Assembly: GCA_964631415.1 (NCBI GenBank) | Contig: CAZVZC010000001.1 | Span: 36,638 to 100,637, forward strand | Source: an uncultured archaeon | GTDB taxonomy: Archaea; Asgardarchaeota; Thorarchaeia; Thorarchaeales; Thorarchaeaceae | Length of the DNA stretch: 64,000 nucleotides | Direction of reading: 5' to 3' | Shown here: positions 2,631 to 5,454 of the stretch, piece after piece | Position numbering within the stretch: position 1 is the stretch's first letter | How the letters are laid out: every line of letters starts with the position of its first letter | The notes under the pieces: generated by a model | Databases searched by the model: none | What the model was told of the DNA's origin: nothing | Seen by the model: only the letters and a program-made list of their open reading frames with translations | Translations under genes and position numbers: made by a program

Positions 2631-2975
2631 ATGGAATCAGGTGAGATTCAGGACTTTGAGAGCGAAACAGAGCGAGTTCGATTGAGATTACGCGTCATGC
2701 GTCTTGAGAATGGGCTCCTCATTCTGATCTCAGACTCAGAGAGGTTTCGCTTGGGTCTCTCGGCTGTGGCAATTCCGGCAGGGTCCGGTCGACAGGAACC
2801 TAGTTCCACAGGGTTCTTGTCCGTCGGAGAAGACGTAGTACAGGTGCGCATCCTAGCTGAGACTGTTGCAAAACGTACAGGCCAAATGTGCATGGTGGTA
2901 GCCGCAGTCAAGGAGCTAAACCGTACACTCATGATGGACATCACTAGGACTCTGAGGGAGCATGTCCCGAAGTGA
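2631..2975 (+). CDS. Proteasome assembly chaperone 4 (PAC4/PSMG4)-like protein
   Basis: 114 aa; VMRLENGLLILIS, AVAIP...PSST and LAETVAKRTG resemble PSMG4 motifs recalled from memory (VMRLTDSLFLWVG, LAVAM...PVST, LAQRLARKTN). Confidence 0.65.
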   Translation: MESGEIQDFESETERVRLRLRVMRLENGLLILISDSERFRLGLSAVAIPAGSGRQEPSSTGFLSVGEDVVQVRILAETVAKRTGQMCMVVAAVKELNRTLMMDITRTLREHVPK

Positions 2976-3174
2976 CATAGTCAATCACATCTTGAACCCA
3001 CGTCCCGAGTCCTTCGACACGGCGTAGTGAGGCGAGGTAGTCGGCCCAATCGATTTCAAGCGCTTTCTTCCACTTGTCAAATGCAGAATATAGTCCGTCA
3101 AGGGCTTTTCGGTGATATCTACATAGCTCACTGCCATTTGCTGATTCACGACCGCAGAGCGGGCAGTCTGTCAG
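2944..3174 (-). CDS. Small Zn-finger protein (CxxC-x10-CxxH), 76 aa, apparent CTG start; absent from the ORF track
   Basis: Reads (M)TDCPLCGRESANGSELCRYHRKALDGLYSAFDKWKKALEIDWADYLASLRRVEGLGTWVQDVIDYVTSGHAPSES*; GGAGGTGA Shine-Dalgarno at 3188-3181, 6 nt before CTG; CTG overlaps the topA stop (CTGA). Confidence 0.8.
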   Translation of the reverse strand: MTDCPLCGRESANGSELCRYHRKALDGLYSAFDKWKKALEIDWADYLASLRRVEGLGTWVQDVIDYVTSGHAPSES

Positions 3175-5306
3175 ACGTCCTCACCTCCATTGGGCTGGTT
3201 CTTGGTTCTTCTCCTCGTCCTCCTCTTCTCAAGCAACTCAATGTCTTGTTGGCGGCCTGGGCATTTTGTCCAGTTCAGACAGGTTTCCCATCCTCTCTTT
3301 CCTGACAGGATCTTAATCATATGGTGACCACAATGAGGACAGGTCCTACCCAGCGGTACGAGCTTGCCTTTCTGCGGTAAAGGAAACGCGATATCACAGG
3401 TTCCCTTCTGATGGTTTGAACACCCTACAAACCTCTTTCCTGTCTTGGGTGAGTAGATTACAACTAGGACTCCGTCGGCACAACTGGGACACGGTCCTAT
3501 CTCCTGCTCTTCCCTCCAATACCTTCGCAGCCCCTTCGCCAGGGCTTGGCCTATGCTTTGCTCCTGCAATCTGAAGTTCTCTAGTAGTTTCACAAGTTCG
3601 TTCTTTGCATCCAAGAGGACTGCCCTTCTTTGTCCAATGCCTTGTTGGATTTCCTCCATCTTCAGCTCGAGTCTGCGTGTCATGTCAGCGGACAACATAT
3701 CGGGCACGTGTATTTGGAGAGCCTCGAAGGCCGCATAGCCCAATGCAGACAGTTCGAAGTGACTGCCGAGCGTATACCCCCTAGAGTTGATGGAGTCGAT
3801 GATTCCAGCACGGGTGGCTTTTGTACCTAAGTTCTCCTTCTCCAGCAGTTTCAGTAGACTGGATGGATTGAAACGAGGCGGCGGCGGTGTGTACTTCTCA
3901 TCAGCACGCACTGATGTTAGGTCGATCATGTTTCCCTCGCTAAGTGGAGGCATTGCTTTCTCATTCATAGTGGCATAGGGACTGTAGAGGCTGGTCCATC
4001 CTGCCTCAAGGACTGTCAAACCTCTCAGATAGAAGAGGTGTTCACCACATCTGATGTCGGCTATCACAACTTGCTTCACTGCAGGCTCCCCGAACAAAGC
4101 CAAGAACCTGCGCACCACCAAGTCATACACCCTTTCCTCGTTCGCTGCCAGCTTCTTTGTTGGCCGATTTCCCGTTGGGAGTATCGCAGGATGGGCTTTG
4201 TCTTCTTTCTCGCCCTGCATGGGTACTAAGCTCTTGTGCTGAAGAAGGCGCCTAACGAGGGGGGCGTATTTGCTCATCTTTCCGATGCCTTCGAGTGTTT
4301 GTCTAACGTCCAGACTCGGCGGCACTTTCTGGCTGTCAGTTCTAGGATATGTGATGAGTGCATCAAGATACAGTCCCTGTGCAATCTGCAGGGTTCGGCT
4401 TGGTCTGAGTTCGAAATGCCTGTATGCTTCTGTTTGGAGGTCACTAAGATTGAAGGGGGGCGGAGGCCTCTGTGAGGAGATTCTGCTACTGATTGAGCTC
4501 ACGCGAGCAGTTCTACCAAGGAGATCCTTCACCAAGGCATCTGCCTGTGCCTTTGTTTCAATCCTTCTATCACTGTACTCCAAGCTCACTTGCTGGCCAT
4601 CTACAACTCCGGTAGTAGACAAGGTCCAGAACGGTATCGGTACAAAGAGATTGATTTGCTGATCACGTTCCGCCACATATGCCAGAGCGGGACCTTGGAC
4701 CCTTCCTGTTGAAACTATTCTGAACAGTCCTGTCGTGTTCTTCATGGCGAGCGTCAGGGCGCGTGTGAGATTGATTCCATACAGCCAGTCCACTTCATGC
4801 CTAACACAGCCTGACTCGACCATAGGAAAGTCGAGAGTTGGCATCAGGGTCCCATAGGCTTTCTGCAATTCTGGTTTAGTCAAAGACGAAAAAACCATCC
4901 TCCGTGCTCTTGAGGGGTCGATGCCACAGACGTGTTTGACAATCAAATAGCCAATCAGACTTCCCTCGATATCATAGTCCGTGGCCACGACAAACCTGTC
5001 CGCATTCACAGAGAGACGCCTAATCAGTTCAATGACTGGTTTGGTACCTCCCGCGCTCTTTTCAACCTCGTATTTGGGTGCCCATTCCGTATCGAGTCGT
5101 GGGTATGTCCATCCTTTCTCTGTCTGCCGAAGCTCATACAGGTGTCCAAGAGCATAGACAACGGTGAGAGAATCGCCTTGGCATTTGCACTCGTAGTATG
5201 AGGCTCTTCCACTCTTGACTTCATGGAAACCATCCTGATCATCGAGAGCCTCGGCTATTCTCTTAGCCGCACTTGGTTTTTCCGAGATCACAAGGACCCG
5301 GGACAG
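3171..5306 (-). CDS. topA: DNA topoisomerase IA (archaeal TopA/Topo III) with C-terminal Zn ribbons
   Basis: Toprim SEKP and ATDYDIEG, GRVQGP, active-site ITYPRTDS, C-terminal CxxC pairs; start extended from GTG 5291 to CTG 5306 to complete the first Toprim strand. Confidence 0.95.
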   Translation of the reverse strand: MSRVLVISEKPSAAKRIAEALDDQDGFHEVKSGRASYYECKCQGDSLTVVYALGHLYELRQTEKGWTYPRLDTEWAPKYEVEKSAGGTKPVIELIRRLSVNADRFVVATDYDIEGSLIGYLIVKHVCGIDPSRARRMVFSSLTKPELQKAYGTLMPTLDFPMVESGCVRHEVDWLYGINLTRALTLAMKNTTGLFRIVSTGRVQGPALAYVAERDQQINLFVPIPFWTLSTTGVVDGQQVSLEYSDRRIETKAQADALVKDLLGRTARVSSISSRISSQRPPPPFNLSDLQTEAYRHFELRPSRTLQIAQGLYLDALITYPRTDSQKVPPSLDVRQTLEGIGKMSKYAPLVRRLLQHKSLVPMQGEKEDKAHPAILPTGNRPTKKLAANEERVYDLVVRRFLALFGEPAVKQVVIADIRCGEHLFYLRGLTVLEAGWTSLYSPYATMNEKAMPPLSEGNMIDLTSVRADEKYTPPPPRFNPSSLLKLLEKENLGTKATRAGIIDSINSRGYTLGSHFELSALGYAAFEALQIHVPDMLSADMTRRLELKMEEIQQGIGQRRAVLLDAKNELVKLLENFRLQEQSIGQALAKGLRRYWREEQEIGPCPSCADGVLVVIYSPKTGKRFVGCSNHQKGTCDIAFPLPQKGKLVPLGRTCPHCGHHMIKILSGKRGWETCLNWTKCPGRQQDIELLEKRRTRRRTKNQPNGGEDV

Positions 5307-5454
5307 TTCTGTTCGCCTCTGGTTCTCTCATTGCCATCGGTGTTCGTATGTTTTTAACAATGACTCCATGCCAAGACTACGCCATAGTACAGGCCTCCAT
5401 CTCACGATATTTTTAAAAGCGGACCTCCCGACCTCGCTCGTTGAGGTTTGCCTT

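Follow-up and report, generated by a model that had tools for sequence, protein, structure and literature searches.

A small gene overlapping the topA stop codon in a Thorarchaeaceae archaeon: a predicted detached topoisomerase III domain V with a putative CUG start

In a stretch of 64,000 nucleotides (nt) from an uncultured archaeon of the family Thorarchaeaceae (phylum Asgardarchaeota; assembly GCA_964631415.1, contig CAZVZC010000001.1, positions 36,638 to 100,637; hereafter the window), a gene of only 76 codons lies directly downstream of topA, the gene for a type IA topoisomerase. It is a real gene that gene finders have missed. By its sequence and predicted fold, the product is a free-standing homologue of domain V of topoisomerase III. 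The gene is most likely translated from a CUG codon that overlaps the topA stop, with the help of a full-length Shine-Dalgarno (SD) sequence, and sequence conservation and modelling indicate that its product is most likely a trans subunit of the TopA protein encoded upstream. We assign a probability of about 0.72 to the joint explanation, that is, a detached domain V that binds in trans to the hinge of TopA and is started at a CUG after topA. The elements concerned are the following, in window coordinates.

2944..3174, minus strand: small gene, predicted free-standing homologue of topoisomerase III domain V, 76 codons plus TAG stop
3172..3174, minus strand: proposed CTG start codon of the small gene, overlapping the topA stop as CTGA
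3181..3188, minus strand: Shine-Dalgarno sequence GGAGGTGA, within the 3' end of topA and 6 nt ahead of the CTG
3112..3165, minus strand: Cys3His zinc knuckle (C4, C7, C18, H21), invariant in 46 sequences and aligning with Protein Data Bank (PDB) entry 6K8N
2971..3120, minus strand: three helices (residues 19-39, 43-51 and 58-68) in the AlphaFold2 model
3171..5306, minus strand: topA, archaeal topoisomerase III type (Pfam Topoisom_bac, 1e-106, and Toprim), probable CTG start at 5306-5304
4629..4661, minus strand: TopA hinge residues 211-221, QQINLFVPIPF, predicted docking site from the alignment with the Sulfolobus solfataricus hinge and the co-fold contacts
5313..5319, minus strand: GAGGCGA, an SD-like motif 6 nt ahead of the topA CTG

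The small gene and its junction with topA

The small open reading frame (ORF) ends with a TAG at 2946-2944. At its other end, the topA stop codon (TGA, 3173-3171) and the proposed start codon share bases in a CTGA overlap at 3174-3171. Upstream, the frame is closed by a TGA at 3183-3181, which is formed by the last three bases of GGAGGTGA. Between this stop and the first cysteine, Cys4, no ATG, GTG or TTG is found in frame, and the CTG is the sole near-cognate codon, one change away from ATG; the list of canonical-start ORFs of the window contains none in this frame. An internal canonical start was considered and rejected, the first such codon being a GTG at about codon 63. The zinc motif has the form C4-x2-C7-x10-C18-x2-H21 and is followed by helices with Trp35, Trp43 and Trp59. 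An earlier, sequence-only reading of this DNA had described the frame, the motif, the CTGA, the SD sequence, the in-frame TGA and the lack of a canonical start upstream of the zinc finger, and on the minus strand this description is accurate in every detail.

The gene is conserved. A six-frame search with the small peptide recovered it from each of the 24 other family genomes and from several further families of the phylum, and a profile search detected the protein in 71 of 76 family genomes and 144 of 301 phylum genomes. One genome has a second, marginal match (E 8e-4); in all others the gene is single-copy. With few exceptions among the genomes searched, the open frame is short, from which it follows that the small protein is never fused to topA. 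In all of the first 20 loci, topA lies directly upstream on the same strand, and the same arrangement was present in 67 of the 69 further loci that could be scored. The two exceptions (L103 and L104) belong to one other family and have no same-strand topA within 2.5 kb of the small gene. Loci were scored with the zinc-motif pattern C..C.{7,16}C..H, and six more loci, with a differing zinc motif, were left out. In several other Asgard families (L100, L105-L107 and L109) the first spacing of the zinc knuckle differs, for example C-x-x-x-x-C or CxxxC, so that the zinc site looks variable beyond the Thorarchaeota family.

Comparison with the closest species, a congener (G002; the window's own genome is G000), shows selection on the frame. 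The two small proteins are 78% identical, and 42 of the 228 bases of the gene differ, with 9, 10 and 23 differences at codon positions 1, 2 and 3. Synonymous divergence (dS) amounts to 0.58 and the ratio of non-synonymous to synonymous divergence (dN/dS) is 0.22, against 1.3 and 0.9 for the other two frames; for topA of the same two species, the ratio is 0.12. Synonymous and non-synonymous changes in the small gene differ with a Fisher p of 9e-6. Because the low ratio is confined to this frame, the frame is coding and under purifying selection in both species that carry the CTG.

The protein databases contain no match more than 48% identical to the small protein; its relatives there are from Candidatus Thorarchaeota, with more distant matches in Bathyarchaeia. 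No gene is called in the 195 nt after topA in four assemblies from relatives with a TopA identity of 85-93%. Current annotation pipelines allow only ATG, GTG and TTG as starts, which accounts for the absence of the small gene from the databases for the CTG species, and also for topA being called five codons short. The proposal of a hidden gene that standard gene callers miss is thereby borne out: it is conserved, under selection and missing from the protein databases.

Across 68 family genomes, the small gene starts with ATG in 39, GTG in 24, TTG in three and CTG in two, the latter being the window's own genome and congener G002. In the alignment, the CTG stands exactly where the orthologues have ATG, GTG or TTG, as would be expected of the start codon that the sequence-only reading took it to be. 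The other two species of the genus (G001 and G003) have ATGA at this place, pointing to an A-to-C change within the genus, and CTG is a rare derived state for the small gene. The start overlaps the topA stop by 4 nt in 35 genomes and by 8 nt in 22 (57 of the 68), in line with the coupling to topA that had been suggested. Relative to topA, the small frame is -1, +1 or 0 in different genomes, always with its own start at the junction. This variation of the frame speaks for an independent initiation of the small gene and against its being a frameshift fusion.

The SD sequence of the CTG genomes is unusually long. When the longest match to the anti-SD complement AGGAGGTGATCC is measured in the 68 genomes, its mean is 5.1 nt for canonical starts and its length 8 nt in both CTG genomes, a value reached by only one of the 66 genomes with a canonical start. 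GGAGGTGA is a perfect complement of the 3' end of the 16S ribosomal RNA, ...GGATCACCTCCT, in which the complementary stretch is TCACCTCC; this end was read in congener G002, since that of the window's own genome reads N. The extended SD sequence probably compensates for the weaker CUG codon and, by analogy with other overlapping archaeal genes, termination-reinitiation probably contributes to translation of the small gene from the CUG. In the 16S sequence of another genome (G022, L117:1470-1515), unrelated sequence follows ...GTATCCGTAGCGG instead of AAGCTGCGGATGGATCACCTCCT, which may be an insert, an intron or an assembly break.

Relation to topoisomerase III domain V and the predicted TopA interface

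A profile of 20 orthologues matches residues 601-667 of the topoisomerase III of S. solfataricus (PDB 6K8N and 6K8O) with an E-value of 5e-10, and all 20 orthologues match positions 605-670 of the 677-position NCBIfam model NF004438. Cys4, Cys7, Cys18 and His21, whose spacing fits the C-x2-C-x9-10-C-x2-H pattern of this domain, align with Cys602, Cys605, Cys615 and His618 of 6K8N, and the small protein presumably binds zinc through them. The template-free AlphaFold2 model, calculated from 46 sequences, has a predicted local distance difference test (pLDDT) value of 87 and consists of the zinc knuckle and the three helices listed above. When this model was compared with the PDB using Foldseek, domain V of 6K8N was the sole coherent match, with template modelling (TM) scores of 0.76-0.79 and root mean square deviations of 1.7-1.9 Å over 69 columns. 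Foldseek E-values for the 76-residue model are weak (0.05-0.2); the structural match therefore rests on the TM scores, the deviations and its being the only coherent one. In the Sulfolobus enzyme, domain V comprises residues 594-668 and has a new fold of three helices with a Cys3His site (Cys602, Cys605, Cys615 and His618). It packs on the hinge between domains I and II, contributes about five-fold to the binding of single-stranded DNA and is required for decatenation (bioRxiv 10.1101/706986).

Scanning the small protein against Pfam gave only sub-threshold matches (DUF7501 and DZR_2). The C4 ribbon Zn_ribbon_Top1 (PF01396) has no match in the small protein; it is located in TopA, at residues 600-626. 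For DUF7501 and AF_0924 (PF24333 and PF22185), the matches stay below the gathering threshold, with best E-values of 3.7e-4 and 1.1e-3 and 8 of the 20 members matching each; the protein of the window scores 13.5 bits against a cut-off of 27. Residues 29-53 (3016-3090, minus strand; F..WK.AL.I.WEEYL) match Archaeoglobus AF_0924 (PDB 3DT5, E 0.002) in addition to the sub-threshold DUF7501, and the helical part of the small protein may belong to a wider archaeal family.

TopA aligns with 6K8N over residues 12-594 only, which is the four-domain core. The core is followed by a C-terminal stretch of about 115 residues, with C4 zinc ribbons, which the Sulfolobus topoisomerase III does not have. The hinge sequence NLFVPIPFW of TopA corresponds to NLFIPLPKF in the Sulfolobus enzyme. 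On the side of the small protein, the helices carry the predicted interface residues Ala24, Leu28, Ala31, Trp35, Gly57, Trp59 and Val60, which align with the Sulfolobus interface residues Ala621, Leu625, Ala628, Trp632, Gly654, Tyr656 and Val657, and all of these columns are invariant or near-invariant in the family.

Co-folding of TopA residues 1-600 with the small protein gave an ipSAE score of 0.78, against 0.00 for the best control, a pass that may reflect memory of 6K8N; the mark applied is reached by 58 of 80 solved complexes and by 2 of 110 mismatched pairs. At least 96% of the contacts are common to the runs, and the pLDDT of the partner is 83. The contacts involve residues 211 and 213-221 of TopA and residues 20-35 and 53-60 of the small protein. 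No type IA topoisomerase besides this TopA was found in the window's own genome, the assembly of which is 85% complete. A small partner of topoisomerase IA, as the sequence-only reading proposed, thus agrees with the homology to a domain that is part of the enzyme in Sulfolobus and with a predicted complex at the same interface.

CUG as a start codon and the alternatives

A second CTG of interest is found at the beginning of topA. The gene is called from the GTG at 5291 (VISEKP), and the CTG at 5306-5304 lies five codons upstream. This codon, eight codons before the Toprim glutamate, is NTG in all 66 family genomes (CTG in 35, ATG in 17, TTG in 10 and GTG in four). The four residues that follow it are conserved (S-R/K-V/I-L/M), the sequence before it is not, and codons other than NTG occur at the positions neighbouring the column. 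Five genomes lack any ATG, GTG or TTG from the upstream in-frame stop to the Toprim glutamate, the next canonical codon being 12-82 codons past this residue, and in two of these five an in-frame stop directly precedes the CTG. The motif GAGG[CT]GA precedes the topA start in 23 of the 35 genomes with CTG, six of the 10 with TTG, three of the 17 with ATG and none of the four with GTG; as relatives are not independent, these figures are counts and not a test. Judged from these alignments, topA probably starts at the CTG at 5306-5304 and not at the GTG at 5291. In two genomes (G005 and G006; L024 and L025) the topA frame is open for 82-96 codons upstream and a similar peptide occurs in two genera (M-L/F-PPR...). 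The similarity is probably due to a conserved gene that lies on the opposite strand or in a different frame, and not to an extended N-terminus of TopA.

The window's own genome was also screened as a whole. When the association with SD sequences was calculated for all 64 codons within the first 40 codons of long frames, ATG, TTG and GTG came out on top and CTG was outside the top 16. Among NTGA overlaps before long downstream frames, the CTGA fraction is 0.14, similar to that of TTGA, and most cases have a canonical start within a few codons downstream. Strong SD sequences followed after 4-9 nt by a CTG, with a close upstream stop, number five, without enrichment. The best candidates for CTG starts from this genome were rejected as spurious, as they are inside longer, real genes. 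In the 85% complete assembly, the program aragorn identified only 25 tRNAs, including one intron-containing tRNA-Met(CAT), a result that says little about an unusual initiator. In the literature, a review of archaeal translation lists only AUG, GUG and UUG as starts (PMC7531240), while ribosome profiling of Haloferax placed about 30% of the putative alternative initiation sites at near-cognate codons, which were set aside (PMC7261190).

Among the alternatives, the one that we take most seriously, while holding it to be unlikely, is that the small protein is real and CTG-started but is no TopA subunit and acts alone, for instance as a small zinc-finger protein with a DNA-binding or regulatory role. 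Its binding to TopA is a model prediction, the loci L103 and L104 of one other family have no topA nearby on the same strand, and there is the weak similarity to the unrelated-looking AF_0924 and DUF7501 families. However, its most conserved residues are those that form the intramolecular interface in the Sulfolobus enzyme, the hinge of TopA is conserved too, linkage with overlap of stop and start is near-universal, and the co-fold agrees with a subunit of TopA. Alternatively, the small gene could have lost its start by an ATG to CTG change in the common ancestor of G000 and G002 and could now be silent, a pseudogene too young to have decayed. CTG is not accepted as a start in archaea (PMC7531240), it is present in just two of the 68 family genomes, and the genome screens revealed no other CTG starts. 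Yet with 42 of 228 sites changed (dS 0.58), both species retain an intact frame of 76 codons, all nine invariant residues and the dN/dS of 0.22, the SD sequence has been lengthened to 8 nt in both instead of being lost, and in 35 of 66 family genomes CTG occupies the start position of topA, which makes such a pseudogene decidedly unlikely.

The fusion of domain V to the enzyme in Crenarchaeota, the position of the small frame in the -1 frame of topA and its lack of a canonical start would also fit recoding where topA ends, through a programmed -1 frameshift or in another way, by which the domain would become a C-terminal extension of TopA and give a fused enzyme like that of Sulfolobus. We regard this as very improbable: the in-frame TGA at 3183-3181 leaves only seven bases, GGACGTC, for the shift, which are not slippery; the orthologues are in the -1, +1 or 0 frame and have their own ATG, GTG or TTG at the junction; and the topA stop is conserved. 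As to the C at 3174 being an assembly or sequencing error for A, the window does differ by a single base from the ATGA of congeners G001 and G003, but the same CTGA is present in G002, which was assembled independently and represents a different species (dS 0.58), and this excludes such an error. Indirectly, the same gap in the annotation of four assemblies of 85-93% identical relatives also speaks against it, and we give this explanation practically no credence.

Several observations weigh against a CUG-started trans subunit of TopA. A contact like the predicted one has been solved, intramolecularly, in 6K8N; the co-fold pass may for this reason come from the memory of the model and show likeness, not binding. 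Arg635 of the Sulfolobus enzyme, which alone links its domain V with the domain II body, is matched by a near-invariant alanine in the alignment with the small protein. As TopA has the extra residues with C4 zinc ribbons, its functional need for a domain V could differ. For the small gene, CTG is rare and represents one evolutionary event, so that compensation of the CTG by the SD sequence is suggestive only. Finally, as the genome-wide screens show no enrichment of CTG, CUG is not a general start codon in this genome.

In the detached domain V explanation that we prefer, the 76-residue, Cys3His, three-helix protein would be the equivalent of the crenarchaeal topoisomerase III domain V. It would bind TopA in trans, at the hinge that joins domains I and II, using the hydrophobic face that the Sulfolobus domain uses in cis, and once bound it may support DNA binding and decatenation as domain V does in Sulfolobus. 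The protein would be made from the topA mRNA, where ribosomes that end topA at the UGA, or that are recruited by the 8-nt SD sequence 6 nt upstream, may restart at the overlapping CUG. The CUG would be read by the initiator tRNA with a first-position mismatch of the same kind as for GUG and UUG, and it would have replaced an ancestral AUG in the common ancestor of the species of the window and one sister species.

Whether this extends beyond one gene is less certain; we lean slightly towards the view, based on the aligned starts, that in this Thorarchaeota family CUG functions as a start and can be exchanged for AUG, GUG or UUG in the course of evolution. In that case, topA would begin with CUG in over half of the family genomes, and the split-off subunit would have followed in one lineage. 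Two comparative cases of CTG at an orthologous archaeal start position would support it: the small gene, in two of 68 genomes, and topA, in 35 of 66, with five lacking a canonical alternative. If true, an archaeal lineage close to eukaryotes would have complete first-position wobble, accepting any NUG. Among non-AUG starts, CUG is the best one in eukaryotes. A further consequence would be that genes starting with CUG are systematically shortened or overlooked by gene finders.

Neighbouring genes and comparison with known systems

On the opposite strand, a convergent gene ends within the small gene.

2631..2975, plus strand: PAC4-like neighbour, its 3' end overlapping the small gene by 32 nt

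The overlap takes in the small gene's stop and its last 10 codons; the protein tail that these encode shows little conservation and low pLDDT values. The match of this neighbour to the proteasome assembly chaperone PAC4 in Pfam is sub-threshold (E 4.9e-6, 26.9 bits versus a cut-off of 31), and so is a further match to PAC_bac. Downstream of the PAC4-like gene, an XPD/Rad3-type helicase is encoded on the minus strand (561-2588; DEAD_2, HBB and Helicase_C_2). Both neighbours recur in the relatives with 85-93% identical TopA. Divergent from topA, the plus strand at 5368-5868 matches OST3/OST6 (E 1.4e-8), a eukaryote-type accessory subunit of oligosaccharyltransferase.

In overlapping archaeal gene pairs, translation is coupled by termination-reinitiation, and the products are often subunits of one complex (PMC6728339, PMC10666635). 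The pair described here resembles the ATGA and GTGA pairs of these surveys in that the genes are co-directional, stop and start share bases in a 4-nt overlap, the SD sequence is inside the upstream gene and the products are likely to form one complex. It differs in the start of the downstream gene, which in G000 and G002 is CTG instead of ATG, GTG or TTG; this codon was not considered in those surveys, and PMC6728339 does not mention CTG or CUG. In E. coli, hda and yfjD have verified CTG starts (EcoGene 3.0, PMC3531124). They are alike in having a rare NTG start after a ribosome-binding site, recognised by sequence conservation, but those genes are bacterial and their starts confirmed by mutagenesis, while the putative start here is archaeal.

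With domain V of the Sulfolobus topoisomerase III (6K8N and 6K8O), the small protein shares the positions of the Cys3His ligands, the predicted three-helix bundle, the hydrophobic residues that zip onto the hinge, and a partner with the corresponding hinge. Whereas the Sulfolobus domain forms the C-terminal end of its enzyme, the small protein is a polypeptide in its own right, encoded beyond the topA stop; Arg635 is not conserved, and the presumed partner, TopA, contains two additional C4 zinc ribbons that lie between core and stop. The protein family itself is already known. Small free-standing proteins that resemble domain V were noted for Thaum-, Bathy-, Eury- and Thorarchaeota in a 2019/2021 preprint (text and Fig. 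S3; bioRxiv 10.1101/706986), so that the family and the phylum are the same as here. The sequence-only reading was right about the zinc-finger gene, its CTG, the coupling and a TopA partner, but it missed this known identity as a detached domain and the rarity of the CTG. New with respect to the preprint are the near-universal overlap of the start with the topA stop, the conserved interface, the supporting co-fold and the putative CTG start by which the gene escapes notice in two species; also new is how common CTG is, family-wide, at the start of topA. The text of the preprint does not contain the words adjacent, downstream or operon, and the gene overlap with topA is not in it. The preprint asks whether these small, domain V-like proteins bind the type IA enzyme (bioRxiv 10.1101/706986); if the reading proposed here is correct, this question of whether they work with a type IA topoisomerase becomes that of a concrete, testable two-subunit enzyme.

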